Notes: generated from the letters alone by a model not told the origin. A stretch of 64,000 bases of DNA from Planctomycetota bacterium (GCA_038227875.1 JBBRPR010000027.1:41153-105152); one strand, 5' to 3'; shown: positions 1,661 to 63,757, numbered from the stretch's first letter. A program made the numbers and translations.

Positions 1661-2338
1661 ATGGCAAGAACCTTGGAAGAATTGATCGAAACAAACGATC
1701 CCGCGTGGCCCGTCCTACAGGAGTGGATCGCGACCGCCGAAGTGCCGGTCGAAGTACTCCCTCCGGATTTAGGGGCGCGCGAGACGTGTTTGCTGGAGAT
1801 ACAAGTAACCACACGCAGTCCCATGGGCGCGGTCGTCTATGAAACCGGCGGGCTGCTCATTGATCATGGCTGGCTCCGCGTTCTCGGTTCCGGTCATCCT
1901 CGTTTCCCGCGCACACTTCCCGGTTGGAACGCTTTCGCGCGCAAAGAATTGGAGGCGGATGATCCCGGATTCCTCTTTATTGCCGACGATGTTTTGGGCG
2001 GCTTCTTTGCATTGGATTGTGGCGGGTTGGGTGACGCTAAGGGCGAAGTGTTCTACTTTGGACCTGATACGTTGCGATGGGAAAATCTGGAGGTGAAATA
2101 CAGTGCCTTCCTTCAGCAGATGATGAGCGCATCATTACAAAAATTCTACTCAAACGTGCGGTGGGATGGTTGGGAAACGGAAGTATCCAGCGTTCAAGGC
2201 GCGCGATCAATCATGATGTATCCATTTCTTTGGACCACGGAAGGTAAAGATCCGTCGAAAAATAAACGATCAACCGTTCCAATCACTGAAACGTTTGGAT
2301 TGCACCTCATTGAATTTCCTAAACAATTGGGCTCCTGA
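1661..2338 (+). CDS. Conserved hypothetical protein, possibly DUF2625-like
   Basis: 225-aa ORF with good coding character (YFGPDTLRWENLEVKYSAFLQQMMSASLQKFY). It is transcribed divergently from the 609..1577 gene. Confidence 0.55.
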   Translation: MARTLEELIETNDPAWPVLQEWIATAEVPVEVLPPDLGARETCLLEIQVTTRSPMGAVVYETGGLLIDHGWLRVLGSGHPRFPRTLPGWNAFARKELEADDPGFLFIADDVLGGFFALDCGGLGDAKGEVFYFGPDTLRWENLEVKYSAFLQQMMSASLQKFYSNVRWDGWETEVSSVQGARSIMMYPFLWTTEGKDPSKNKRSTVPITETFGLHLIEFPKQLGS

Positions 2339-2572: not shown

Positions 2573-4084
2573 CTACGCACCGACCATTGCGCGGCCTACC
2601 GCTTCCTTTGCCACGCCGCGGGGGCCGACTTCTTTGATCTTGCCGCGGTAGAGGACGCTGACGCGGTCAGAAAGCAGGAGGATTTCGTCGAGGTCGGAGG
2701 AGATCAGTAACACGCCGGCTTGCTGTTCGCGCGCGGCGGTGAGCAGACGCTGATGCACGTCGCCGGTGGCCCCGACGTCCAGGCCGCGCGTCGGATTGCA
2801 GGCGACGATCAGCGCGGGGGCGCAGGAGAGTTCGCGGGCGATCACGACTTTCTGCTGGTTGCCGCCGCTGAGTGAACGCGCGGGAAGATCGGGCTCCGGC
2901 GGGACGGCGCCGTAGTCGCGGAGCAGCTCGGCACCGCGCGAGGTCATCGCGGCGTGATCGAGAATCGCGACGCTGGCAAAGTTGCGCGTCAGTTGCTTGC
3001 GCGCGAACAGATTTTCGCTCAGCGAAAAATCGAGCACCAGGCCCTCGTGATGGCGGTCGGACGGAATGTACGCCAGCCCCGCGTCGCTGCGCGATTTTAC
3101 GGAGAGCGCGGCCAGCGGTTGGCTGCGCATGTCGATCGCGGCACTGGAGTCAAGTGGGTGAGGAAGCGTGCCGGCGATCGCGGCGGCGAGTTCCTCCTGG
3201 CCGTTGCCTTCGACGCCGGCGATGCCCAGAATCTCTCCGGGGCGGATTTCGAGCTGATCGATGTCGAGTACCCCAGGAAGGCGCAGGTTGCGGACGGAGA
3301 GCACCGGTGCCGTGTTCGGCGAGACGGATTGCGTGGCGACTGGCGTGGTCGGCAGCGCGCGTCCGATCATCTTTTCAGCGAGGGTCGCGGGCGTCAGGTC
3401 GCTGAGCATGCCGGAGAAAACCGTCTTTCCCCGGCGCAGCACGGTCGTGGCGCTGGCCAGCGCGAAGACTTCGTCGAGCTTGTGGGTGACGACGACGATG
3501 GTGCGGCCGGCGGCGCGCAGACCGCGGAGCGTTTCAAAAAGCGTCGCCACTTCCGGCGGAGCGAGCACGGCGGTCGGTTCGTCGAGGAGCAGAATTTTGG
3601 CACCGCGGCCGAGCGCCTTTAAGATCTCGACGCGCTGCCGCAGGCCGACGGGCAGGTCGGCGACGCGCGCGGCCGGATCGATCGCCAGGCCCGTCTGCTG
3701 CGCGAGCTCGGCGACGTGCTTTTCCGCGGTGCGCCGGTCGAAGCGCAGACCCAGCGGACTGGCGCGGATGCCCAGCGCCACGTTCTCGGCGACGGTGAGC
3801 GCATCGGCGAGGAGGAAATGTTGATGAACCACACCGATGCCGGCGGCGACGGCATCCAGCGGCGAGGAGAAATTCGCGGTCGTGCCGAAGACGCTGCAGG
3901 TGCCGGCGTCGGGCTGGAGCAATCCCGAGACGATGCCCAGCAGCGTCGACTTTCCGGCTCCGTTCTCGCCGACGAGCGCGTGAATCTGCGCGACTTCGAC
4001 GCGCAAACTGGCGTCGTCGAGCGCCGTGTTGCTGCCGAAGCGCTTGGTGATGCCGGTGCAGACGAGTGCGGGCGCGTCGCTCAT
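2573..4084 (-). CDS. ABC transporter ATP-binding protein with two fused ATPase domains (sugar-importer RbsA/MglA/XylG type)
   Basis: 503 aa. The first domain carries Walker A GENGAGKST, and an LSGGNQQKVVIARELS signature follows the second ATPase domain. The start ATG overlaps the rhomboid stop (ATGA at 4081-4084). Confidence 0.85.
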   Translation of the reverse strand: MSDAPALVCTGITKRFGSNTALDDASLRVEVAQIHALVGENGAGKSTLLGIVSGLLQPDAGTCSVFGTTANFSSPLDAVAAGIGVVHQHFLLADALTVAENVALGIRASPLGLRFDRRTAEKHVAELAQQTGLAIDPAARVADLPVGLRQRVEILKALGRGAKILLLDEPTAVLAPPEVATLFETLRGLRAAGRTIVVVTHKLDEVFALASATTVLRRGKTVFSGMLSDLTPATLAEKMIGRALPTTPVATQSVSPNTAPVLSVRNLRLPGVLDIDQLEIRPGEILGIAGVEGNGQEELAAAIAGTLPHPLDSSAAIDMRSQPLAALSVKSRSDAGLAYIPSDRHHEGLVLDFSLSENLFARKQLTRNFASVAILDHAAMTSRGAELLRDYGAVPPEPDLPARSLSGGNQQKVVIARELSCAPALIVACNPTRGLDVGATGDVHQRLLTAAREQQAGVLLISSDLDEILLLSDRVSVLYRGKIKEVGPRGVAKEAVGRAMVGA

Positions 4085-8271: not shown

Positions 8272-8319
8272 TGGCTACGACTGTAACCTCGCTGGGGCCG
8301 AATGGCAATGGTCCCGTTC

Positions 8320-8468
8320 GTAGTCCGGGCGTCTGACGTCTTCGTTGGAAAGTTCAGGTGGATTGCGAAGCAATAATGAAGCGTGCTTTCGCGCAAAAGC
8401 GAGACTTTCGAAAGGATGTCGCTTCGTCGCAAAGGCTGCAGTTAGACCGGGCGAGACACCCGGACTAC
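8320..8468. repeat. Pair of inverted copies of a 25-nt hairpin repeat (GTAGTCCGGGCGTCT[CGCCCGGTCT]) in the divergent leader between the 7111..8271 gene and hss
   Basis: A partial copy lies at 8320-8340 on the plus strand and a full copy at 8444-8468 on the minus strand. The same 25-mer recurs at 63645-63669. Confidence 0.75.
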
Positions 8469-8647
8469 AAAAAAACTTGCGTTCCTATTTTAATTTTGTG
8501 TCTACTACCTTGACAATGCCGCACAAATAACGTTATTGAAGAATCTTCAAAACGCATGCGCAGCGAACTCACTTTTCCGCGGGCAAAATTGCCGGCGCAG
8601 GCGCGTGTTTGAAGGGTCCGGGAAGTACGGAGGCTTGAGAAAAACCG

Positions 8648-10146: not shown

Positions 10147-10738
10147 AGAAGCCATTGTTCTTCAACGTGTTCGACAAATTGCCGTTGTTGTATTGGTTGA
10201 TGGCGTCTTTGTAGCGCGAGTTGCGGTACTGCTGATCGCGCTGCTTGCGCTGCTGCTCGTCCTGCTTGGCCTGTTGGGCTTCCAGTTGAAGCTCCTGCGC
10301 GAGCTCGGCTTCCAGCTTTTTCTTCAGCGCAATGGCTTCTTCTTCGGCCTTCTTCTTGGCGGCGGCTTTTTCTTCGTCGCGCTTTTTCTTGGCGTCGGCG
10401 ATCTTCTTTTCGTCCGCGGCTTTCTCTTCGGGCTTGACCCACTTCCCCTTGTATTGAACCTTGCCGGCGGCGATGGCCTTTTCGGTCTCTTCCTTGAGCT
10501 TCTGCGCGCGGGCCTCGCGCTCGGCGATTCTCTCGGGCGTATCGGTCTCGATGCGCAGTACCTTTTCCATCGGGACGCGCATCGTTCCAAATTCGACCTG
10601 CAGTTCGATGTACTCTGCGTTCGATTTAACGATCGTGCCGTCGATGGTCTCGAGTGTTTTCATCACGACCGTGTCGGCGCGGGCGCTGAGGCCTAATAAG
10701 GTGGTGACGAGCACGAGGGCGAGTTTTGAAATTTTCAT
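10145..10738 (-). CDS. Secreted Lys/Glu-rich coiled-coil protein of unknown function
   Basis: 197 aa with a signal peptide MKISKLALVLVTTLLGLSARA followed by a long KE-rich helical region. Confidence 0.55.
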   Translation of the reverse strand: MKISKLALVLVTTLLGLSARADTVVMKTLETIDGTIVKSNAEYIELQVEFGTMRVPMEKVLRIETDTPERIAEREARAQKLKEETEKAIAAGKVQYKGKWVKPEEKAADEKKIADAKKKRDEEKAAAKKKAEEEAIALKKKLEAELAQELQLEAQQAKQDEQQRKQRDQQYRNSRYKDAINQYNNGNLSNTLKNNGF

Positions 10739-26008: not shown

Positions 26009-27118
26009 ATGGCAACAGCGCCCACGTCACCTTCCAATCCAACTCCAGGTTCCGCCGGTTCCGGAGGCGGTGGCGGCGCACGTCCCGCCGGCCGTCCAAA
26101 TGCGCCCGGGGCTGCGTTTCGCCCTGCGACGAATGCGCCCGGCGGCGCGCGTCCGGCCTCTTCAGTGCCCGGCTCCAGCGCACCCAAACCGGACATTAAA
26201 CCGGTGGCGCCCGACGCGTCCGATAGCGACCGCATGCGCAAGCCCGGTGCGGCGATGCGAAACAACACGGCCAGCACCGCGCCCACGGCCAAGCACCCGC
26301 CGGTCAATCCCAACGCCATCTCCGGCAACTTGCCGAAAGCCGTGAATCCCAATTCTGTTTCCGGCACACTGCCGAAAGCGGTGAATCCCAATTCCGTCTC
26401 GGGCAACTTGCCGAAAATCGGTGGGCGACCGCCGTCGGGCAAAGCTCCGCCGTCCGACCTTGCCGCGCGCCGCGAAGCGCTCGGACTTTCTTCAATGAAG
26501 CCCTCCGAAATGATCGCGGGCCTGGATGAAGCGGCCGCACGCGCGGAGAAGCTCGAAAAGCGCGAAGAAGCCAAACGCAAAGGCGGCGGCAACACCCTCA
26601 ACACCGCGCTCCACGTCGACGACACCGGCAAGAAATGGTCGCGCATGGTGTTGCTGTCGCTGGCGGGCGTGATCGCGCTGGTGGTGCTGATCGGCGCCGG
26701 GATGATTTATCTGTCCAACCGCAAGTCGCTCTCGCCGGCCGAAGGCAACCAGTTGACCCGCCAATGGGTGCGCGATTTGGGCCTGATCGCTCAAAAAATG
26801 AAACCCTTCGAACTGGATGAGAAACCTCCATTGGACAAGGTGAAAGAGCGCCTGACCGAAGGCATCAATGCGGAATTGGACGATGTCAAAGCGACTATAA
26901 AGGCTCAGGAGGACGTGCACCGGCCTCCCAGCAGCCGCGACATTGAATGGAAGGAAGAACTGCTCGAATTGCAGAAATATCAGGATGCCTGGGCTCAACC
27001 GTTCATGTTCAATTTGGACGACGACAAGCTGACGATTTCCGCCAAGGGCAAGTCCGAGCCCGGGCGTTCAATCGACCCGGTAATCGTGAAGCTCCCCCGC
27101 CGCAAGCCGTCTAAATAG
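26009..27118 (+). CDS. Pro/Ala-rich single-pass membrane protein with three tandem 13-aa repeats
   Basis: It has a low-complexity N-terminus, a 3 x 39-nt tandem repeat (26303..26419, VNPNxxSGxLPKA), one TM helix and a charged C-terminal domain. The start codon is uncertain. Confidence 0.45.
   Translation: MATAPTSPSNPTPGSAGSGGGGGARPAGRPNAPGAAFRPATNAPGGARPASSVPGSSAPKPDIKPVAPDASDSDRMRKPGAAMRNNTASTAPTAKHPPVNPNAISGNLPKAVNPNSVSGTLPKAVNPNSVSGNLPKIGGRPPSGKAPPSDLAARREALGLSSMKPSEMIAGLDEAAARAEKLEKREEAKRKGGGNTLNTALHVDDTGKKWSRMVLLSLAGVIALVVLIGAGMIYLSNRKSLSPAEGNQLTRQWVRDLGLIAQKMKPFELDEKPPLDKVKERLTEGINAELDDVKATIKAQEDVHRPPSSRDIEWKEELLELQKYQDAWAQPFMFNLDDDKLTISAKGKSEPGRSIDPVIVKLPRRKPSK
26303..26419 (+). repeat. 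3 x 39-nt in-frame tandem repeat inside the 26009..27118 CDS
   Basis: gtcaatcccaacgccatctccggcaacttgccgaaagcc / gtgaatcccaattctgtttccggcacactgccgaaagcg / gtgaatcccaattccgtctcgggcaacttgccgaaaatc. Confidence 0.8.
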
Positions 27119-38002: not shown

Positions 38003-38088
38003 CAGCAGCCCGTTGATTAACCCTTGGCCTACGCCGCGAAACGCCTTTACTGCCAGGCGTTTCACGGTGAAATCTAACGGGCTGCTAG
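38003..38088. other. Copy 2 of the structured motif: outer stem CAGCAGCCCGTT/AACGGGCTGCTA enclosing AAACGCCT-TTACTGCC-AGGCGTTT plus CACGGTGAA
   Basis: It overlaps the stop codon of the flotillin gene and lies upstream of the 37528..37794 gene. The outer stem differs from copy 1 by compensatory changes. Confidence 0.45.
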
Positions 38089-40358: not shown

Positions 40359-41088
40359 AGAACCCTCCCTTCGAGAAAGTCCGTGCGTTCTTGCGTGACT
40401 ACGCAGTTGGACTATGGCCTGATGGCTACAGTCCAAGTATATCACGCTGCGGCGGACTTTGGTTTTTGTGGGTAAAGTTGGACGGGCAGAGATGCCCGGC
40501 ATGCGGCGAGGAGGAGGAGCCGTATGCCGGACGATCTCTACTCCGCCAGATTGGCAATACGCGGACGACCTGGGCTGGGAGTCCCGAGTCGGCCAGTGCC
40601 GCGCCGCGAGGTGTGTGCCCGCGACGCGGAGTTTGCGCACTGCCACAGCCGGCTCAGAAGCTTTTGGTGGTTGCAATCCTGAGAATGCCGAAGGCATCTC
40701 TTGATTGGGGGCTTGATTTGAACAGGATGGAGCCCACATCACAGGCGGAGCGCCTGTGCCACAGAAGCCTCTGAGGATTAAAAGTGGGCGCGAACGTTTG
40801 TTGCGACGCCCTGAACAAGCCTACGAGGTTAGCTGACGGGTTAGGGACTTCAGGTACCCTTCCTGCTTAAAACCGCAGGATACACCCCAACTGATTGGTT
40901 CCCCCGTTTCAGCCCTACGAGGACTGAACTCGGCGCTGTTGTGTTACGTCCGTAAGAAACCACGATTCCGATCTAATGTCAATATAATAGTAGGGGCTTG
41001 TTTGTAATCGCTGTGCACGTGTGGTGTAGCGCGACGGGACTTCGGATAATCCTTGCTGATTGTCACACAGGAATTATCGTCGACATCC

Positions 41089-43420: not shown

Positions 43421-43450
43421 GCGATGGCGCCTTTGCAAGAAACGGGAAGA

Positions 43451-43594
43451 TTGCGGATTGCGGATTGCGGATTGCGGATTGGACGGCAAAGCTCGCATTG
43501 AGAACCATACACAGTGCTCCGAAATTTCTTGCACGCTCTTCTGTCTTGAAGCTACCGCATTCTAATCCGCAATCCGCAATCCGAAATCCGCAAT
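43451..43594. repeat. Inverted tandem heptamer arrays: (TTGCGGA)x4 at 43451-43480 and (AATCCGC/AATCCGA)x4 at 43564-43594, separated by 83 nt
   Basis: Read directly from the sequence. The arms can pair as a roughly 30-bp stem. They fill the intergenic gap between the GcvH-like and DGC genes. Confidence 0.85.
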
Positions 43595-43600
43595 AAAAAA

Positions 43601-44053
43601 TCACGCCTGGCCCTTCAACATCTTCACCGTCTCTTCCCAGCCGCTCGCAAGGAACGCGACGTAGGCAGCCGCGTCCAACGGCCGGTCCGGCTTGCCTTCG
43701 AATTCCAGCAGCCAGTGTTCGTAAGGATCGACGGTGAGCAGCGACGGGTCGTTCACGGCGGCCTGATTGATGTCCGCGAGCTTCCCCGTCAGCGGCGCGT
43801 AAAATTCCGATGACGCCTTGGTGCTTTCGACTTCCCCCAGCACCTGCTCGTACTGAATCGCTTCGCCGACGTAGACCTTCCAGTCGATGCGGAACAGATC
43901 GGAGAGCAGCCGCGCCGCGTATGCCGAAATGCCGCTGCGCGTATTACCGTTGGGCAGCGTCTGAAACCAGAAATGGGACTCGCAATACTGCAAGTCGACC
44001 GGAAACGTCGCCTTGTACAACCCCATTTCAAACGTCAGCCGTTCCGCCGCCAT
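43601..44053 (-). CDS. Glycine-cleavage H-protein family (lipoyl-carrier) paralog
   Basis: 150 aa. VGEAIQYEQVLGEVESTKASSEFYAPLTGKLADINQAAVNDPSLLTVDPYEHWLLEFEG aligns with the GcvH lipoyl-lysine region (ES-x-KA). No gcvT/gcvP is adjacent. Confidence 0.7.
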   Translation of the reverse strand: MAAERLTFEMGLYKATFPVDLQYCESHFWFQTLPNGNTRSGISAYAARLLSDLFRIDWKVYVGEAIQYEQVLGEVESTKASSEFYAPLTGKLADINQAAVNDPSLLTVDPYEHWLLEFEGKPDRPLDAAAYVAFLASGWEETVKMLKGQA

Positions 44054-47992: not shown

Positions 47993-48435
47993 TGGACGAC
48001 GCCGCATAATGGTAGGAAGCCCCGCACTGGAACCCGCACGCGTGACTGAAACTGGCTCGAATTAAGATAACGCCCTTCGCACCGTGAGCAACACTTTCAT
48101 CGTGAAAAGATCATCAAAAAGTGAGTCGCCGATAAAAGCTATAAAATTAGCGGCAGGAACTATGCCGTAGATGCCCACGCCAACGATAACAGATGGGATC
48201 GGGGATCTGGCATCGGGCATCTGCTTTTTGGGAGGCACGTCCGTAATGCCCAATCGGAGAGAAATAACGTTGTAATACGGTGCGCCCACAAAATGACCGA
48301 TGCCAGATGCCCGATCCCCGATGCCATTAGTTGGCGTCGAGCCCGACCCCTTCACTAGAATCTTCCCCGCCATCCGCTATCTTTATCGTTTCCGTCGCGA
48401 CACGACGGCACAGACCATTTTCACTTGGAGAAGCC

Positions 48436-55516: not shown

Positions 55517-58500
55517 ATGGACAATTTCTTGATCGTGATGGTGGTGCTCGCGTTTTTAGCGTGCACGGTAATCGGGTTCTTCTGGTCCGTGGTCAAAATC
55601 CTGGGCTTCCTGGGGAAGCTTCTGGAGGGTGGATCGCCGACAGTTTCCACCCCGGCTTACGTGAAGCGGCCGGCGTCCCCACCACGGCCAGAAGTCCCGG
55701 TTTCCTTCCTATCGTCCACACTCGCGCGGAGCGAAAACGATGCCGCGCGGCACACGACGCGCAAACTGGCGCTGCAGACGGTGCGCTTTGAAGTGCAGCG
55801 CGCGTTCAATCTCGGCCTGATCCCGCGCGACACGTATCTGGCGATGGGCAGGTATCTCGATCGCGAAAAACTAGCCGTGAACGGCGGCGCCGAGATCGCG
55901 CCGACGCCGGACGTGATCCCAGAGTCGCCGCCGCAGCCCCAGCCCATGGCGCCAGCAACGGCCTCGGCTCCGGCCGACCCGCTTCCCTTATTGGAGCTTA
56001 TGGAGACTGCCACACCCAGTCCGACTCCGGAACCGACACCGGAGGCCGTACCGCCCGTGCCCGTTGCAGAAACCGTTCCCGCGGCGCAGACGGCTGCGGT
56101 GCCAGAATTGCAGCCGGTGCAGGAATCCGCCGCACCCGTCCCGGTCCCGTTCGAAGATGAAGCATCGGCAAAAAACCTGGCGCGCGTGCGCTCGGCGATC
56201 GCGAAACTTCACGAACACGCGCAGGCGCCGGAGGAGCCTGCGGCATCTCTCTCTCAAGACGCGGAGGCGATGGAGGCGCGCGTTGCGATTTCGGAGTCGC
56301 TCGCGCCTTCACCGCTGCCGCAGCCGGCGGAGAGGGAGGTGCCTGCGGTAGCGACGCCGGCGCCAGCTCTATTTAAAGGTGAGAAATCGTCGGCGATCAA
56401 AAAGTCGTGGGCCGAACGCCTTTTCACGCCGGAGAACGTGCGCATTCTGCAGAGCCTGGGCATCTGCATCATGTTCATCTCCGCCGTCGCGTTTGTGCGT
56501 ACGCAGATGTGGAACGACGCGCTGCCGCTGACGCGCATGCTCATTTTGCTCGCGGGTACGGTCGCGTGTTCGGGCACCGGCTATGCGCTACGCCGCTGGC
56601 TCAGTTTGCGGATCACGGGGCTGGGCTTCCTGATTCTCGGGCAGCTATCAGTCGTGCTCGACGCTTACACGGTCCTGCTGACTCCCGCCATGAACGGGCA
56701 TCCGATCTATCCGTATTCTCCCGCGTCGCTCTGGACGGTCTCGTTCATCGTCTTCGCAATCATCGCGGCGGTGAAAGCGCGCGTGCTGAAGGAACCGCTC
56801 TTCGATGCCTTCGCGTACTTCGGCGGATTGGCGGCGTGGGGCGCGGCGGCCTTGTGGGCGGGCGTCGATCCGTACTTGCTGCCGGCGACGTTCGTGCCCG
56901 CGCTGCTGGTCTCCGCGCTTCTGGCACAGTTCGTGAAGCCGAAGAGTTTTCCCGCCAAACCCACCGGAGCGGACGCGGAGAACGAATCGGCCGAACCGGC
57001 GCTGCGCGTGCCTCGCTGGTCGATGCCGTGGTGGCTGGCGGCCGGCTTTGAGTTCGGCGCGGTGCTGCTGGCGGTGATTCTGCCCGTCGCCGCCGAATTG
57101 AGCGGAGCGCGCGCGTTGTCCGCGCACTTTGCCGCGCACGCCAGCGCGATGGTGGGACTGGCGCTCTCGATCTTCGTCGTCGCGCAGGTCCAGATTCGCA
57201 ACGGACAGCGCAAACTTCACTCGTCGATCTTCCACGCGGCAGCGCTGCTCCTGCTGCTACCCGCGCCGATGGCGGCATGGGCGTTCGCGTGGAAATTTCC
57301 GGAACTGACGGCGGCGTTCGCGCTGCCCGGCGCGTGCCTGGCCCTGGTGGGACTGGGCCTGCAGCGGCTGTGGAAATCGGAAGCGAACGACACGCCGCAG
57401 GCCACGCTCGCGCCGTGGGGCCTGGCGGCGACGGTGCTCGGCGTCGCCGGTGCGGCGGTGTTGCGTTGCCAGGGCCATGCGGATCCGGCGCTGCTGCTGA
57501 GCGCGGGGGCGGCGCTGAGCGTGGCGCTGGCCTTCGCACTCTGGCGCGATGAAATGTGGGGACCGTTCCTCGCGACCTTCAGCGCGGCGCTGATGGCGTC
57601 GATCGTTCTGGAGCGCGCACATCTGCCGTCGACGTGGATTCCCGTGGTCGGCGGCGTGCTGGCGTTGCTGAGTCACGCGGGCTGGACGGCGCTGAAGCGG
57701 ACGGTCTCGCCCGAAGGTCGCATGTCGAGCGACGTTGTGGCGCTGCTTTCCGGTCTGGCGTTGCTCACCTTAGCGCCGTTCTTCCCGACAGGAACTGGCG
57801 CGATGGTGGGTGCGACCGCGCAGGTCAGCTTCGGCTGGCTGGCGCTCTTCGCGTTCGTGCTGGCGACGTCGCTCTGGGATTTCACGCCGTTCCGGCGCGG
57901 GCTGGGCATCGCGCTGAGCGCGCCGGCGCTCGCGTACACGTGTTACCACGCGGGATTTCTGTACGGCAGCCCCGCGCCGTGGCTGGCGGTGCTGGCGCTG
58001 GCGGCGGTGGTGCTCTGCCACTTCTTCTCGATCGACGAAGGCAGCGGCTTTGGCGTGATGGCGATCTTCGCGCACGGCACTCTGCTGGCCGGGTATCAGT
58101 TCGTGAACGGGTTTTACGCTCCGGCGGCGCTCTCGTTCGGGTTGTTGGCGCTGGCGCTGCTGGTCCACTCGCAGTTCCAGCGCGCGCGGCACAAAAACGC
58201 GTGGGCGGCGATCTGCGAAACTGGAGCGCTGGGCTATCTGAGTTTCTCCGGCGTCTGCTTGACGGAATGGTCGGGACTCGATGCACTGCGCTGGCCGCTG
58301 GCGCTGACGCTGCTGGGCGCGGCGGTGCTGGTGTTCGCGAAGATCGGCGAAATCCTCAGCGTGAAGTTGCACGCATCAACCCACGAAGGCGAGCGGCCAT
58401 TCCGCGCGGCGGCTCCGATTGTGGCGCTGGCGCTCTCCGCGGCGGCTTTTGTGAAGCTGCTGATTCTCTACAGTTGGAGCATGAGCGATTCTGCGATGTT

Positions 58501-61192
58501 GCTGACGCTGTCGTGGAGCTGCGGCCTGCTGCCGCTGTTCATCGCCTTCCGCACGCAGGTCTTTGAGACGCGCAAGGTGTGCAAGGTCTCCGCGGATGCG
58601 ACGCTCTCCTTGAGCGCCGTCGGCGGCGCGCTGCTGGCGGCGGCGTTTGGATTCGTGGCGACGTTGCAGCTGCTCCGAGCGGAATTCTGGCTGCCGATGC
58701 CGGCGTGCACGCCGCAACTGCGGCTGGCCTGCGCGGCGTACCTGGCGGTAATTCTGCTCGTGTCGGTGCTCGGCACATTGAGGAACGTGAAGCCCGCAGC
58801 GATTCCCGGAATGCTTGCGTCGCTGGGTTTGATTGGTTGCGCCTGCGGGCAGTGGACTGTGCCGGACCAGATCTTTGCGCTGGGTGCCGCGATGCTGGTC
58901 TATGCGGCGACGTGGTTGTCGTGCAGGGAGAACGAGGCCGAGCAGCACGACGCGAGTTTTGAAACCGCGGCGTGGATCGCGTCGGGCTTCGCGCAGTTCA
59001 GTCTGACGGCCGGCTTGCTGTCGTGGTCCGTACGCGGCACGCAGTACCTGGCGGTCGCGGCGTGGCTGGTGCTCGCGGCGGCGCGCTGGCAGAAGGCCGA
59101 GAAACGGCGCTACGCGGCACTGGCGATGGCGGCGATTGCTTTCGCAGTTGCGCACGGCATGCGCTGGATGGGCTTGGAATTTCACCAATTCGGACCGGGA
59201 CTGGTCGGCACGGCGCTGCTGATTCTCGGCGCGGCCGAGGGCATTCGGATGTTCGACTGCGCCGCCGCGGTCGACGAGCCGCGCAGAACCGGGCCGTCAC
59301 GCGCGAATTCCATTATTCTCGTGGCGGCGCTGACAGGTGTGGCCGGAACCGTACTCGGCTTTGTCGGCGGGATGAAGGGCCAGATGTGGCAGTGGAGCGC
59401 CACGCTGCTGGAATGTGCGCTCGGTGTGGCTGCGGCGACATTGATCGTCAGACGCAATCAGGCCGCATCTGGCAACGCATTGCCGGAGAAGCGCGTGCTG
59501 CTGCTGGAATTGAGCGCGTGGCTGCTCCTGACGTTCTCACTGATCGCGGCGGCGAATGTTAACGCCGCGAACATCCCAGTGTCCGGGCCGACGTGGGCGC
59601 TGATCGCCGCGGCGTTCCTGCTGCTGGGCATGGCGGCGGAAGCGATCGTCGGTGCGCTCACCGGCGCGCAAGATTCCCAGAAGTCGCCGGCGTTTCTGGA
59701 ATCGCGTCATCTCGCGGCGCTGGGCATTGGGGCCGTCGGTCTGATATCGGCGTTCTTCCATGGGAACGGCGGCGATATCCATCTGCTCTGGCGCACGTTG
59801 CTAGCGCTGACCACGCTGGCCGTCTATGGCGGCTTCGCGCGCATTTCTTCCCGGGAAAAGTGGAACGATCTGGCGCAGAAATTCAGCGGCGGCTTGGCGT
59901 ACGTGGTGCTGCTGCCGCTGGGCTATCTGAATTTTCTGAACGCGCATTCCAACGGCGGGCCGTGGGGCGGGATGTACTTTATGCTGCTCTGCCCGATCTT
60001 GCTGGCCGCGCAGTATGTGCTGCGTCGCGAAAAACGCGACGACCAGGCCGCGCTGGCGAATTTCGGCGCGTGGATGGTCAGCGCCGGAGCCGTGGTGCTG
60101 GCGTTCGTCGGAAACCGGCAGGAACTTTCTGCGGTCCCCGCCGCGGTGCTGGCGGTGTTGGCGCTCCAATTCCTGGCGACGCGCGCGATGACCGGCAAGC
60201 GCGGGTACACCACGGCGGTGTGTGCTGCAGTCGTGGGCTCGACGTACTTTGCGCTCCAGGCGCTGGTCGGATTCCCGCTCTTCGGCAGCCACAATCCGTG
60301 GGCGTGGCAGATGCCGCTGCTGTCGCTGCTGGGCGTGGCGATGATCATGCTGGGCGGCAGCGCGAAGCTGGATGAAATTCCGCTTGAGAGTGGCGTGCGC
60401 GGTAAGCCGGCGCAGGGGAGTATCGTCGCGCTGAGTGGATTGGCGACCACGGGCCTCGCGCTGATGATGTCGGTGTTGTACGTCTTCGGATTCGGAGTGC
60501 GCGCACACTTCCCCTTATATGCAAACATGGGCTATCTCGACGCGGTGATCGCGTCCACGCTGCTGTTGGCAGCGGCGACGCTGTGTGCGAAGCGCTGGCT
60601 GGCCGACTGGAGCTCGGTGGAATTCGTTGGCAAGTATCTGCCGCCGGTCGCGACGCTCGCCGCGTACCTGATGTTCGTCCTGAAAGCTCCGCCGCACGCG
60701 GCCGAGTGGTACAGCGTGCCGATGGCCGTGTTCTTCTTCAGCTGGGCCTGGCAGTCGATCGCCGAAGCGGAAAAGCGCGCTGAATCCCGGCATGAAAAAC
60801 ACGACGAGCGCGAAGCCGCTGTGCTGCTGATGATCGCCAGCGCGCTCACCGTGATTCCATCCTTCATCCAGGAACTGCCGAACAACGCGGAAGGCACGCA
60901 TCACTTCTTCGCGATGCTGGGGCTCTCTATTGCGATGGTCTTCGGCGCAATGCTCTCCCGCCGCAAAATTCCGCTGCTCGGCGGCAGCGCGGGCGTGGTC
61001 GTCGGCACGATCATCAAGTGCGCGCAGTGGGCTCATCATCACGACGGCGTCGGCCCGTTGTTGGGCATCCTGGTTGGCTTGATTCTCGTCGCCGGCTCCA
61101 CGCTGCTCGAATCGCGCATGAATCAGGCGTTCCGGAAGGTTGTCGACCGCGCGCGGGCGGAAGCGCGGATGTTCTGGGTCTCCTGGCAATGA
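55517..61192 (+). CDS. Giant polytopic membrane protein (1891 aa, more than 40 predicted TM helices), function unknown
   Basis: An N-terminal TM, a Pro/Ala/Glu-rich linker (residues about 130-260), then an almost uninterrupted series of hydrophobic helices with short loops. It is a single ORF with uniform codon usage. Confidence 0.6.
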   Translation: MDNFLIVMVVLAFLACTVIGFFWSVVKILGFLGKLLEGGSPTVSTPAYVKRPASPPRPEVPVSFLSSTLARSENDAARHTTRKLALQTVRFEVQRAFNLGLIPRDTYLAMGRYLDREKLAVNGGAEIAPTPDVIPESPPQPQPMAPATASAPADPLPLLELMETATPSPTPEPTPEAVPPVPVAETVPAAQTAAVPELQPVQESAAPVPVPFEDEASAKNLARVRSAIAKLHEHAQAPEEPAASLSQDAEAMEARVAISESLAPSPLPQPAEREVPAVATPAPALFKGEKSSAIKKSWAERLFTPENVRILQSLGICIMFISAVAFVRTQMWNDALPLTRMLILLAGTVACSGTGYALRRWLSLRITGLGFLILGQLSVVLDAYTVLLTPAMNGHPIYPYSPASLWTVSFIVFAIIAAVKARVLKEPLFDAFAYFGGLAAWGAAALWAGVDPYLLPATFVPALLVSALLAQFVKPKSFPAKPTGADAENESAEPALRVPRWSMPWWLAAGFEFGAVLLAVILPVAAELSGARALSAHFAAHASAMVGLALSIFVVAQVQIRNGQRKLHSSIFHAAALLLLLPAPMAAWAFAWKFPELTAAFALPGACLALVGLGLQRLWKSEANDTPQATLAPWGLAATVLGVAGAAVLRCQGHADPALLLSAGAALSVALAFALWRDEMWGPFLATFSAALMASIVLERAHLPSTWIPVVGGVLALLSHAGWTALKRTVSPEGRMSSDVVALLSGLALLTLAPFFPTGTGAMVGATAQVSFGWLALFAFVLATSLWDFTPFRRGLGIALSAPALAYTCYHAGFLYGSPAPWLAVLALAAVVLCHFFSIDEGSGFGVMAIFAHGTLLAGYQFVNGFYAPAALSFGLLALALLVHSQFQRARHKNAWAAICETGALGYLSFSGVCLTEWSGLDALRWPLALTLLGAAVLVFAKIGEILSVKLHASTHEGERPFRAAAPIVALALSAAAFVKLLILYSWSMSDSAMLLTLSWSCGLLPLFIAFRTQVFETRKVCKVSADATLSLSAVGGALLAAAFGFVATLQLLRAEFWLPMPACTPQLRLACAAYLAVILLVSVLGTLRNVKPAAIPGMLASLGLIGCACGQWTVPDQIFALGAAMLVYAATWLSCRENEAEQHDASFETAAWIASGFAQFSLTAGLLSWSVRGTQYLAVAAWLVLAAARWQKAEKRRYAALAMAAIAFAVAHGMRWMGLEFHQFGPGLVGTALLILGAAEGIRMFDCAAAVDEPRRTGPSRANSIILVAALTGVAGTVLGFVGGMKGQMWQWSATLLECALGVAAATLIVRRNQAASGNALPEKRVLLLELSAWLLLTFSLIAAANVNAANIPVSGPTWALIAAAFLLLGMAAEAIVGALTGAQDSQKSPAFLESRHLAALGIGAVGLISAFFHGNGGDIHLLWRTLLALTTLAVYGGFARISSREKWNDLAQKFSGGLAYVVLLPLGYLNFLNAHSNGGPWGGMYFMLLCPILLAAQYVLRREKRDDQAALANFGAWMVSAGAVVLAFVGNRQELSAVPAAVLAVLALQFLATRAMTGKRGYTTAVCAAVVGSTYFALQALVGFPLFGSHNPWAWQMPLLSLLGVAMIMLGGSAKLDEIPLESGVRGKPAQGSIVALSGLATTGLALMMSVLYVFGFGVRAHFPLYANMGYLDAVIASTLLLAAATLCAKRWLADWSSVEFVGKYLPPVATLAAYLMFVLKAPPHAAEWYSVPMAVFFFSWAWQSIAEAEKRAESRHEKHDEREAAVLLMIASALTVIPSFIQELPNNAEGTHHFFAMLGLSIAMVFGAMLSRRKIPLLGGSAGVVVGTIIKCAQWAHHHDGVGPLLGILVGLILVAGSTLLESRMNQAFRKVVDRARAEARMFWVSWQ

Positions 61193-61218
61193 GCGCGGTG
61201 ATGCGGAATGGGAACAGA

Positions 61219-61428
61219 ATTGCGGATTGCGGATTTCGGATTGCGGATTAGCGAAGGGGATCGGTCCGTTTTTGCGCGGGAGTCATTCGAGATCGGGAGC
61301 AACGGAGACGAATAAAAGAAAAGCGTGCGCGCTAAAATTCGTGGGTAGGATTTTGATCTCGGAATTCACCCCGCGTAACGGACCAGCAACCGTCGCTAAT
61401 CCGCAATCCGCAATCCGAAATCCGCAAT
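61219..61428. repeat. Second pair of inverted heptamer arrays: (TTGCGGA/TTTCGGA)x4 at 61219-61250 and (AATCCGC/AATCCGA)x4 at 61397-61428, separated by 146 nt
   Basis: The right array is identical, as a 32-mer, to the right array at 43563-43594. It lies between two convergent genes. Confidence 0.85.
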
Positions 61429-61432
61429 GCCG

Positions 61433-62137
61433 TTAGAGGTACCCGAGGTCTTCCAATCTCTTCTGAATTTCCTTTTCGTCTTCGACGCTGTAGCCGCTGG
61501 CGCGGTCGACGGTGGATTCCAGGCGTGCGCCTTTGAGCGTCGCGGGGGCTTCGACGTTGAGCCAGGCGAGGACCGTGGCGAGGACGTCTTCGATGGGGCG
61601 TTCTCCGCCGTCGCCGGACTTGAGGCCTTGGGTGTGGCAGAGCCACTTCGCGTCACTCATGCCGCAGAGCGTAATGACGGTGCCGACGTCGGTCGGTTGC
61701 GCGGCGAGGAACGTCGCGAGATCCTTGGCGAACATTTCGGCATCCGCGGGAAGCGGCAGGGAAATTCCGAGGAGATCCCACGGTTCTTCGGCGGACAATT
61801 TTTGCGCAACGGACAGCGGCGTGGGTAATGCTGCCAGCGTCGCGGCGACGCGCGCTTCACTGCTGGGCTGCAGGCAGCGCCATTTTCCGTTCTCAGTGAA
61901 CACCGCCAGGGCGCGCGAACGCACCGGCGCGGCGTCGCGCCAGTCGGTGCCGACGGTGACGCGCGACAAGCGCGCCGCGGCGACGGCCTGGATCCATTCG
62001 GCGCTGAACAATCTGCCGCGCGCACTCGCGCCGGCCAGCACCGTGCCGCTCAGGCTGTGAACGGAGAGCTGCTGCCACTGGGCCGTGAAGTCCGACGGCT
62101 CTCCGTGTACGACGACAAAGATGACGCGCTGCGGCAT
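61433..62137 (-). CDS. Hypothetical protein (234 aa)
   Basis: Starts immediately downstream of the sulfatase-like gene on the same strand. No motif recognised. Confidence 0.4.
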   Translation of the reverse strand: MPQRVIFVVVHGEPSDFTAQWQQLSVHSLSGTVLAGASARGRLFSAEWIQAVAAARLSRVTVGTDWRDAAPVRSRALAVFTENGKWRCLQPSSEARVAATLAALPTPLSVAQKLSAEEPWDLLGISLPLPADAEMFAKDLATFLAAQPTDVGTVITLCGMSDAKWLCHTQGLKSGDGGERPIEDVLATVLAWLNVEAPATLKGARLESTVDRASGYSVEDEKEIQKRLEDLGYL

Positions 62138-63631: not shown

Positions 63632-63644
63632 GGCGCTCCGTTTC

Positions 63645-63757
63645 GTAGTCCGGGCGTCTCGCCCGGTCTTCTTGAAAATTCACATGTTCCGTCCCCGACG
63701 ACGCGACTCTTGCAACGACGCGTCTGTCCGACGCAGACCGGGCGAGACGACTGGTCT
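63645..63757. repeat. Second pair of the GTAGTCCGGGCGTCTCGCCCGGTCT repeat, immediately upstream of the sulfatase-like gene start
   Basis: Full copy at 63645-63669 on the plus strand and a partial inverted copy at 63735-63757, followed by TTTTT. On the minus strand the motif ends 14 nt before the ATG. Confidence 0.75.

Follow-up and report, generated by a model that had tools for sequence, protein, structure and literature searches.

The window analysed here is a 64,000-nucleotide (nt) stretch of one strand from a Planctomycetota bacterium (GCA_038227875.1 JBBRPR010000027.1:41153-105152), with positions counted from its first letter. Two converging genes in it, encoding proteins of 1891 and 234 amino acids (aa), face each other across a 240-base gap, and this gap is occupied by one long hairpin, the element at 61219-61428, whose outer arms each consist of 4.4 copies of the heptamer ATTKCGG, where K is G or T (Table 1). 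Read on the plus strand, the left arm runs through two ATTGCGG units, one ATTTCGG, a further ATTGCGG and a closing ATT, and the right arm through AAT, two CCGCAAT units, one CCGAAAT and a final CCGCAAT. The element is bounded by the junctions CAGA/ATTGCGG on the left and CGCAAT/GCCG on the right, the latter giving the arrangement TAA-cggc-ATT, an offset of 4 nt, at the end of the 234-aa gene. At the opposite end, 26 nt intervene between the stop of the 1891-aa gene and the left arm, and this spacer, with its degenerate heptamer-like units, is probably a decayed older portion of the stop-proximal array. An earlier note on this DNA had placed the start of the left arm 27 nt past the stop of the 1891-aa gene and the end of the right arm 4 nt before the stop of the convergent gene; both distances are borne out, the arm beginning at the 27th nt.

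Table 1. Parts of the 61219-61428 element and other heptamer hairpins in the window
Feature	Position	Strand	Remarks
TGA stop of the 1891-aa gene (55517..61192)	61190..61192	+	protein ends ...MFWVSWQ, then stop
Spacer, 26 nt, with degenerate heptamer-like units GATGCGG (61200-61206) and AATGGGA (61207-61213)	61193..61218	+	direct reading
Left arm, 31 nt of (ATTKCGG)x4.4, G-rich in the sense of the 1891-aa gene	61219..61249	+	
Interior ("insert"), 148 nt, imperfect palindrome extending the stem, unique to this locus	61250..61397	.	
Apex, 4-bp mini-hairpin AGCG/TGCG/CGCT (61322-61333), then UUUUCUUUUAUU on the minus strand	61310..61339	-	
Right arm, (ATTKCGG)x4.4 read in the sense of the 234-aa gene, starting 4 nt past its TAA	61398..61428	-	
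TAA stop of the 234-aa gene (61433..62137)	61433..61435	-	protein ends ...LEDLGYL, then stop
Sister element, identical 32-nt right arm TAATCCGCAATCCGCAATCCGAAATCCGCAAT, left arm 1 base different, 83-nt interior	43450..43594	-	
Third hairpin, arms of about 4 units GGSATCK (GGGATCG/GGCATCT) and complement, G-rich arm first	48183..48337	.	RNA -80 kcal/mol, z -6.8

The repeat character of the arms is evident from several lines of evidence. Tandem Repeats Finder reports for each arm a period of 7, 4.4 copies and 91% matches, and inverted-repeat detection widens the arms outward to 61213. With up to 2 mismatches allowed, the 14-mer ATTGCGGATTGCGG has 13 occurrences in the window where 1.2 would be expected; none of 100 shuffles yields 13, and 12 of these 13 occurrences fall within this locus and its sister. 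The earlier note had described the element as the second copy of a heptamer-array hairpin at 43451-43594, and the right arm shared letter for letter by the two loci confirms this; all four arms in the window hold 4.4 units each. Moreover, L121, an independently made Logan assembly of this organism, stops 20 nt inside the right arm with identical letters, indicating that the array is real and not the artefact of one assembler. The open reading frame at 61433..62137, which defines the right boundary, is coding-like, with GC contents of 0.80, 0.67 and 0.50 at third, first and second codon positions (GC3, GC1 and GC2), and has homologues at 68-73% identity, with no relative nearer than 73% in the protein database.

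Folding of 61213-61434 yields a single hairpin on the plus strand of RNA (-115 kcal/mol, z score -9.4), with closely similar values for the minus strand (-110 kcal/mol, z -8.8) and an equally marked signal when the region is folded as DNA (-70 kcal/mol, z -9.8). The interior contributes to this stem. On its own it folds with z -4.2, and 48 of the 50 pairs predicted link one half to the other; the halves align at about 65-70% with insertions and deletions, and no hidden 7-nt periodicity was detected in it. The palindrome at this locus thus reaches about 75 nt per side past the arrays, and the insert is a continuation of that palindrome, not separate cargo. The earlier description of arms enclosing a 146-nt insert with its own A-rich stretch is therefore correct in length (148 nt at 61250-61397, or 146 nt once the flanking A and T are trimmed) and in the A-run, and is revised in that the insert is itself palindromic. 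The A-rich stretch (about 61312-61323) falls within the apical internal loop, appearing on the minus strand as a U-run after the mini-hairpin at 61322-61333, a combination too weak to be scored as a terminator. Within the outer arms, 2 of the 4 units are mismatched in the absence of a 7-nt slip in register. The 83-nt interior of the sister element is unrelated to that of 61219-61428 and unstructured (z +0.7), and a G/U-rich array by itself folds weakly, at -4 to -8 kcal/mol.

Gene-like signals are absent from the element. Scanning of 60900-61800 for sigma-70-like promoters and terminator-like sites returned none, and Rfam gave no match to the locus at gathering thresholds (whole window) or at E<=10 (61150-61500). 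No credible open reading frame lies in the insert, the overlapping ones being purely mechanical. BLAST of the insert against the window and more than 240 loci with the same arms (about 2 Mb) recovered no further copy, the best E value being 0.06. The earlier note had proposed the 146-nt insert as a small RNA and had tied that idea to conservation of the insert elsewhere; the lack of another copy in the window or in the same-arm loci, of a promoter, a terminator or an Rfam match, and of conservation at the orthologous site all speak against it. Judged from its letters, the locus is not supported as a hidden small-RNA gene and is instead a repeat filling the gap between two stop codons.

The orthologous site of relatives, at about 70% amino acid identity, lacks the element. 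In a contig carrying a 233-aa homologue at 73% identity (L122), the two convergent stop codons stand 1 nt apart and the element is absent. A second relative (L123, 1724-1809) has an 86-nt spacer that contains GGGGACACGGATGA twice on the window-equivalent strand together with a AGCGGACT hairpin, and it is bordered on either side by the 12-nt direct repeat GAGCGGACTGAA; in a JGI contig the orthologous spacer measures 113 nt. The flanking proteins retain their ends, FWVSWQ of the 1891-aa protein in L122 and L123 and LEDLGYL of the 234-aa protein in L121-L123. Because the element is absent in relatives and both C-termini are kept, the 240 nt represent a lineage-specific insertion or expansion strictly between the stops, and the different repeat in the L123 spacer suggests an insertion hot spot occupied by varying repeats in different lineages.

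The same arrays are widely distributed. A scan of GTDB, with one genome per species, for three consecutive ATTKCGG units yielded at least 120 loci, against about 2 chance matches estimated from the collection size, and a scan of IMG/VR yielded at least 120 viral contigs; being seeded on ATTKCGG, these samples show breadth and not prevalence. Among the matches listed, the hosts include Planctomycetota, Verrucomicrobiota, Acidobacteriota, Nitrospirota, Chloroflexota, Bacteroidota, Gemmatimonadota, Myxococcota, Desulfobacterota-type lineages and others; when the 120 GTDB loci listed were compared with the window by BLAST, no hit reached E<1e-10, so outside the arrays these loci are unrelated to it. 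Paired arrays in the matches listed follow a strong polarity, with the order (ATTKCGG)n...(CCGMAAT)n outnumbering the reverse 58 to 8 in genomes and 33 to 5 in viral contigs; their arm lengths cluster tightly at 31-33 nt, 4 being the commonest copy number, and their spacers vary between 0 and 400 nt and most often measure about 20-30 nt. Among long spacers an extended palindrome is frequent (z<-2 in 12 of 29), as at the present locus. Crude gene calls place 45 of 78 pairs between tandem genes, 9 between divergent and 7 between convergent ones; 60 adjacent gene ends lie at a median of 12.5 nt from the pair, 29 of them within 7 nt, and adjacent gene starts at a median of at least 34 nt. The flanks carry no target-site duplication and, outside a single phage lineage, the interior of one copy is unrelated to that of another, a makeup that does not qualify the elements as miniature inverted-repeat transposable elements.

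Element density varies from the two copies in the 64-kb window to as many as 3 per 8 kb in other genomes, and reaches 6-8 ATTKCGG hairpins per roughly 12 kb in a group of related phage contigs (L128, L148, L172 and L242; IMG/VR, GC 47-50%). These hairpins lie between co-directional genes with a ribosome-binding site after each, and several share identical 20-nt interiors and GAAGA...TCTTC stem extensions. Such crowding fits a role in gene expression more readily than it fits junk.

Individual family loci display further arrangements. In L011 (about 1760-1990, minus strand) and L024 (about 3520-3600, minus strand), ATTKCGG hairpins stand directly upstream of sequences that by eye read like tRNA genes, so that the elements are not confined to the ends of protein genes. 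In L063 (1430-1559), divergent gene starts apparently lie 0-2 nt from the arms by crude gene calls (CAT gg/ATTGCGG ... CCGCAAT/ATG), a junction that leaves no space for a ribosome-binding site outside the array. ATTGGGG units are interspersed in the ATTGCGG arrays of L057. The intergenic DNA beside the arrays of L019, L040, L053 and L056 is crowded with repeats of ATTTTGG, GGGGGAG, GAGGAC, GGCAGT, TCGGGTC and CTTGGCC, and these genomes appear generally prone to short tandem arrays.

The position of the arrays relative to stop codons depends on the strand. Among 191 isolated arrays, those G-rich in sense begin at a median of 4 nt past the stop, with 55 of 72 within 15 nt, whereas those C-rich in sense lie at a median of 56 nt, with only 7 of 48 within 15 nt. 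Stop-to-array offsets concentrate between -2 and +6 (84 of 106), with peaks at -1, 2, 4 and 5. The commonest is 4 (20 of 106), the value found at the 234-aa gene; at offset -1 (18 of 106) the stop and the array share an A, as in TG-ATTKCGG, and TAG, TAA and TGA all occur. The window itself provides offsets of 4 nt (234-aa gene), 6 nt (sister locus) and 26 nt (1891-aa gene), the sister element following the TGA of the gene at 43601..44053 in the arrangement TGA-tttttt-ATT and preceding the ATG (43420) of the next minus-strand gene by about 29 nt. Scarce intergenic space cannot explain this anchoring, because only the G-rich-in-sense orientation adjoins the stop.

These rules extend beyond the ATTKCGG unit. 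A control set drawn from the same loci comprises 194 arrays that differ from ATTKCGG by at least 3 mismatches and represent 117 distinct units. They display the same asymmetry, with medians of 6 and 63.5 nt for the two orientations, and the same mode of 4 copies, and their inverted pairs place the G-rich arm first in 15 cases and second in 1. Since the arrays are anchored to stops, a convergent gene pair automatically brings two of them face to face, where they pair.

Collectively, these features very probably identify the element as a member of the class of intergenic heptamer repeats of about four copies whose G-rich strand follows a stop codon directly on the coding strand and which are often paired in inverted orientation; such repeats were described by Rehm et al. 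2015 (PMC4692102). What the element does is a separate matter. The mechanism that we propose tentatively, as possible rather than probable, is that it functions within the mRNAs of its two neighbouring genes and not as a gene. In the transcript of either gene, the stop codon would lead straight into the G/U-rich arm and then into the C/A-rich arm, and the two would close into a very stable 3′ hairpin. This hairpin could block 3′-to-5′ exonucleases, leaving almost no unprotected single-stranded RNA behind the last ribosome. For the 234-aa gene, where the stem begins 4 nt past the stop, it would lie within the footprint of the terminating ribosome and, by analogy with the repetitive extragenic palindromes of E. 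coli that lie within 15 nt of stops, could slow termination; for the 1891-aa gene the stem would start 26 nt downstream of the stop. The G-first polarity would moreover keep C-rich, Rho-attracting RNA absent or base-paired. Taken as a whole, the combination of class identity with action as a stop-proximal mRNA hairpin is the best available explanation of the locus, and its chances are about evenly balanced.

A number of results weigh against the mRNA-hairpin proposal. The G/T position of the unit is uncompensated between arms (16 of 28 positions match, with 50% expected), and arms of the same element mismatch at 11.3% compared with 13.4% for arms swapped between loci, a slight excess of complementarity for which lineage-specific unit usage could account. 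With the K position uncompensated and the swapped-arm excess small, perfect pairing is not strongly selected, and arm pairing itself would be under selection only weakly. Arrays without a recognisable partner within 400 nt pair with downstream sequence no better than shuffles do, so the hairpin is not the sole relevant feature. Around 15% of pairs are flanked by divergent genes and so have no gene 3′ end beside them, and the third hairpin of the window (48183-48337) cannot be a 3′-end element since it too lies between divergent genes. Downstream of 58 paired elements there is no T enrichment or U-tract, the pooled flanks showing only a G...C preference. The gene contexts come from crude GC3-based scoring of reading frames and their numbers are approximate, and the recurrence of ATTKCGG in particular across phyla is left unexplained. 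The analysis shows the anatomy, the class traits, the strand asymmetry, the non-conservation and the lack of gene-like signals; every functional step is inferred.

The main rival, which we consider somewhat unlikely, is that of a selfish or neutral repeat, arising by slippage or by orientation-specific insertion 3′ of TGA/TAA/TAG-like targets, tolerated only where it is harmless, in the stretch separating a stop codon from the signals of the following gene, and carrying a hairpin that is not selected. It accommodates the absence of the element from the orthologous site and the presence of a different repeat there in L123, the unrelated interiors of different copies, the uncompensated K position and the existence of 117 different heptamers with one architecture. 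Heptanucleotides are, in addition, the commonest long simple repeats of prokaryotes and have been ascribed to slippage (Mrazek 2007, cited in PMC4679880 and PMC4692102), the 18 of 106 arrays that share the last base of the stop are what a target-site rule predicts, and the identical 20-nt interiors of one phage lineage look like copy-and-paste. The strand rule speaks against this rival, as only one orientation adjoins the stop and limited space alone is insufficient to produce this. Slippage, for its part, predicts decaying copy numbers and not a sharp mode of 4 copies and 31-33 nt, and insertion is opposed by the lack of a target-site duplication or a fixed junction (offsets of -1, 2, 4 and 5 are all common, after TAG, TAA and TGA alike) and of any associated transposase, which Rehm et al. 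did not find either (PMC4692102). The high density in streamlined phage genomes is likewise at odds with a tolerated passenger.

A bolder reading, and an unlikely one, is that arrays of about four units, G-rich in sense and 0-6 nt past a stop, constitute a pan-bacterial, phage-borne signal defined by its architecture and read by a conserved part of the machinery for translation termination or RNA decay, of which signal ATTKCGG would be the most widely shared version. The reader might be the terminating ribosome or a ribosome-associated OB-fold protein, each of whose domains would bind one heptamer, and 61219-61428 would then be two signals, one for each converging gene, that happen to pair.

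A bidirectional factor-independent terminator serving both converging genes is quite improbable. The location between convergent genes, the very stable stem on both strands and the apex mini-hairpin with its minus-strand U-run would suit such a role, and in Xanthomonas, transcript starts or stops are somewhat more frequent at quadruplex-capable heptamer repeats than at controls (PMC4692102). Since a U-tract after the hairpin is lacking both at this locus and in the pooled flanks of the family, the element is not a canonical intrinsic terminator; in addition, 60900-61800 holds no terminator-like site, the stem of about 100 bp far exceeds known terminator geometry, and most family members sit between co-directional, closely spaced genes (45 tandem against 7 convergent and 9 divergent), including phage blocks that need read-through.

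An element acting at the DNA level, either as a row of 7-bp protein sites (nucleoid, partition-like or transposase-like) or as a cruciform or G-quadruplex affecting supercoiling or replication, is very improbable. A constant CGGATT core with a free K position resembles a degenerate binding site more than a paired stem, the fixed length of four units suggests a ruler, the DNA hairpin is very stable, and the Xanthomonas and Nostoc units form G-quadruplexes in vitro (PMC4692102). The strand-specific relation to the upstream stop nevertheless points to the transcript rather than to symmetric duplex DNA, no quadruplex is predicted for ATTKCGG arrays, and no single sequence-specific protein fits 117 unrelated heptamers. 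Barely credible, lastly, is a small RNA transcribed on its own, for which the arrays would serve as processing or insulating stems: strong structure and the weak apex hairpin with its minus-strand U-run could be cited for it, and it is countered by the missing promoter-like site and the lack of an Rfam match at E<=10, an insert without homologue in anything searched, the absence of the element from orthologous loci, the unrelated and unstructured interior of the sister locus, and family spacer lengths that run continuously from 0 to 400 nt.

The window holds several other repeats and structured RNAs. A separate inverted-repeat element, distinct from the heptamer hairpins, is present in two copies (8311-8471 and 63640-63757) that share TTCGTAGTCCGGGCGTCT ... 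AGACCGGGCGAGAC; its GTAG followed by a palindrome resembles the GTAG-tagged superfamily of repetitive extragenic palindromes (REPs), so that heptamer hairpins and a GTAG-tagged REP-like family coexist in the window. A full-length c-di-AMP riboswitch of the ydaO/yuaA type lies on the minus strand at 40802-40945 (84.7 bits, E 3e-18); it is upstream of a gene that has its end near 38085. On the plus strand, an Acido-Lenti-1 RNA match at 2359-2404 (51.8 bits) is followed about 135 nt downstream by an array of (CCAAGAG)x4.3 at 2539-2568. Tandem repeats at 26306-26416 (39 nt x2.8) and 10334-10408 (33 nt x2.3) may be coding, since their periods are multiples of 3.

For the window, the outcome is mainly a clarification of the locus as a repeat element between two stops. 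More generally, attention shifts to the stretch of mRNA just behind the terminating ribosome. Such arrays also have practical consequences: they break short-read assemblies, as the L121 assembly ending inside one illustrates, and they create spurious open reading frames across intergenic regions.

Comparison with known systems places the element most closely beside other stop-proximal and heptameric repeats. Hairpins processed by RNase III between the genes of phage T7, and intercistronic stabiliser hairpins, consist of long double-stranded RNA stems that leave the upstream cistron with a protective 3′ stem. The ATTKCGG hairpins resemble them in forming long stems between co-directional genes and in occurring in phages; those sites, unlike these, are not built of tandem repeats. 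Cyanobacterial STRR heptamers, whose description in 1990 is attributed to Mazel and colleagues, are reportedly intergenic tandem repeats as well. The DnaA box, the Spo0A box, the NarL heptamer, the P1 parS box A, the CsrA GGA motif, the anti-Shine-Dalgarno sequence and the integron attC site, all compared with the unit, were set aside, 117 unrelated units sharing the architecture. A text search of the literature for the array sequences returned only unrelated papers with human primers.

The TAACTGA direct repeats of Beggiatoaceae, Cyanobacteria and Bacteroidetes occur in 2-6 copies just upstream of start codons (MacGregor 2015, PMC4679880). An RNA-level role has been proposed for them, with S1, Csp and CsrA as candidate binders and no known mechanism of transfer (PMC4679880). 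Like TAACTGA, ATTKCGG is one heptamer common to distant phyla and held tight against a translation signal. The two differ in that TAACTGA is start-anchored, contains forward stop codons and shows one inverted pair, whereas ATTKCGG is stop-anchored, open in six frames and often arranged in inverted pairs.

REPs of the GTAG and CGTC superfamilies are single imperfect palindromes of 20-40 bp, the GTAG superfamily being linked to RAYT transposases (Di Nocera et al. 2013, PMC3733652) and the CGTC repeats having no transposase link (PMC3733652). According to Liang et al. 2015, as cited in PMC12306157, ribosomes stall at REPs located no more than 15 nt from a stop, a distance that applies to 260 of the 496 REPs of E. 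coli; roles in mRNA stabilisation and in down-regulating translation have been proposed (PMC3733652, PMC12306157). The present element shares with the REP/BIME/REPIN families of E. coli and Pseudomonas the dispersed intergenic palindrome, often in doublet hairpins, often no more than 15 nt from the stop or overlapping it and probably transcribed with the upstream gene, as well as variability between species or lineages at orthologous sites. Unlike REPs, it is composed of arrays of a 7-nt unit, bears no GTAG or CGTC tag at its ends, and is accompanied by no RAYT seen in the 64-kb window.

The closest counterpart is the class of heptameric intergenic repeats detailed by Rehm et al. (2015), represented by GGGAATC in Xanthomonas and GGGGAYT in Nostoc and Anabaena (PMC4692102). 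In that class about 4 units are preferred, the G-rich strand lies on the coding strand at 0-50 bp from the stop or overlapping it, and repeats on the other strand lie farther away; convergent inverted pairs number 70-75 in each Xanthomonas genome, the repeats showed no association with mobile elements, and function was left open (PMC4692102). The element at 61219-61428 matches this description as an intergenic 7-nt tandem array of about 4 units with a stop-proximal G-rich coding strand and inverted pairing, and the Nostoc unit is similar even in its letters, GGGGATT rotating to GGATTGG against GGATTGC and GGATTTC here. It differs in extending its palindrome by about 75 nt per side beyond the arrays, in recurring across many phyla and viral contigs where the published class was described in two genera, and in a unit that lacks tracts of 3 or more G and is not a predicted quadruplex former. 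Specifically, quadruplex-aware folding predicts a quadruplex for GGGAATC and for GGGGATT and none for ATTKCGG x4.4, which has GG runs only. The in vitro quadruplexes of the Xanthomonas and Nostoc units had led to the interpretation of the repeats as quadruplex formers (PMC4692102). A class previously detailed for two genera and explained by G-quadruplexes is thus joined here by a unit, from many phyla and phage contigs, for which no quadruplex is predicted, and this unit, together with the same rules in unrelated heptamers, weakens the quadruplex explanation. With the four-unit length and the strand rule common to more than 100 unrelated heptamers, the class appears much wider, and governed by stricter rules, than its one descriptive paper indicates.

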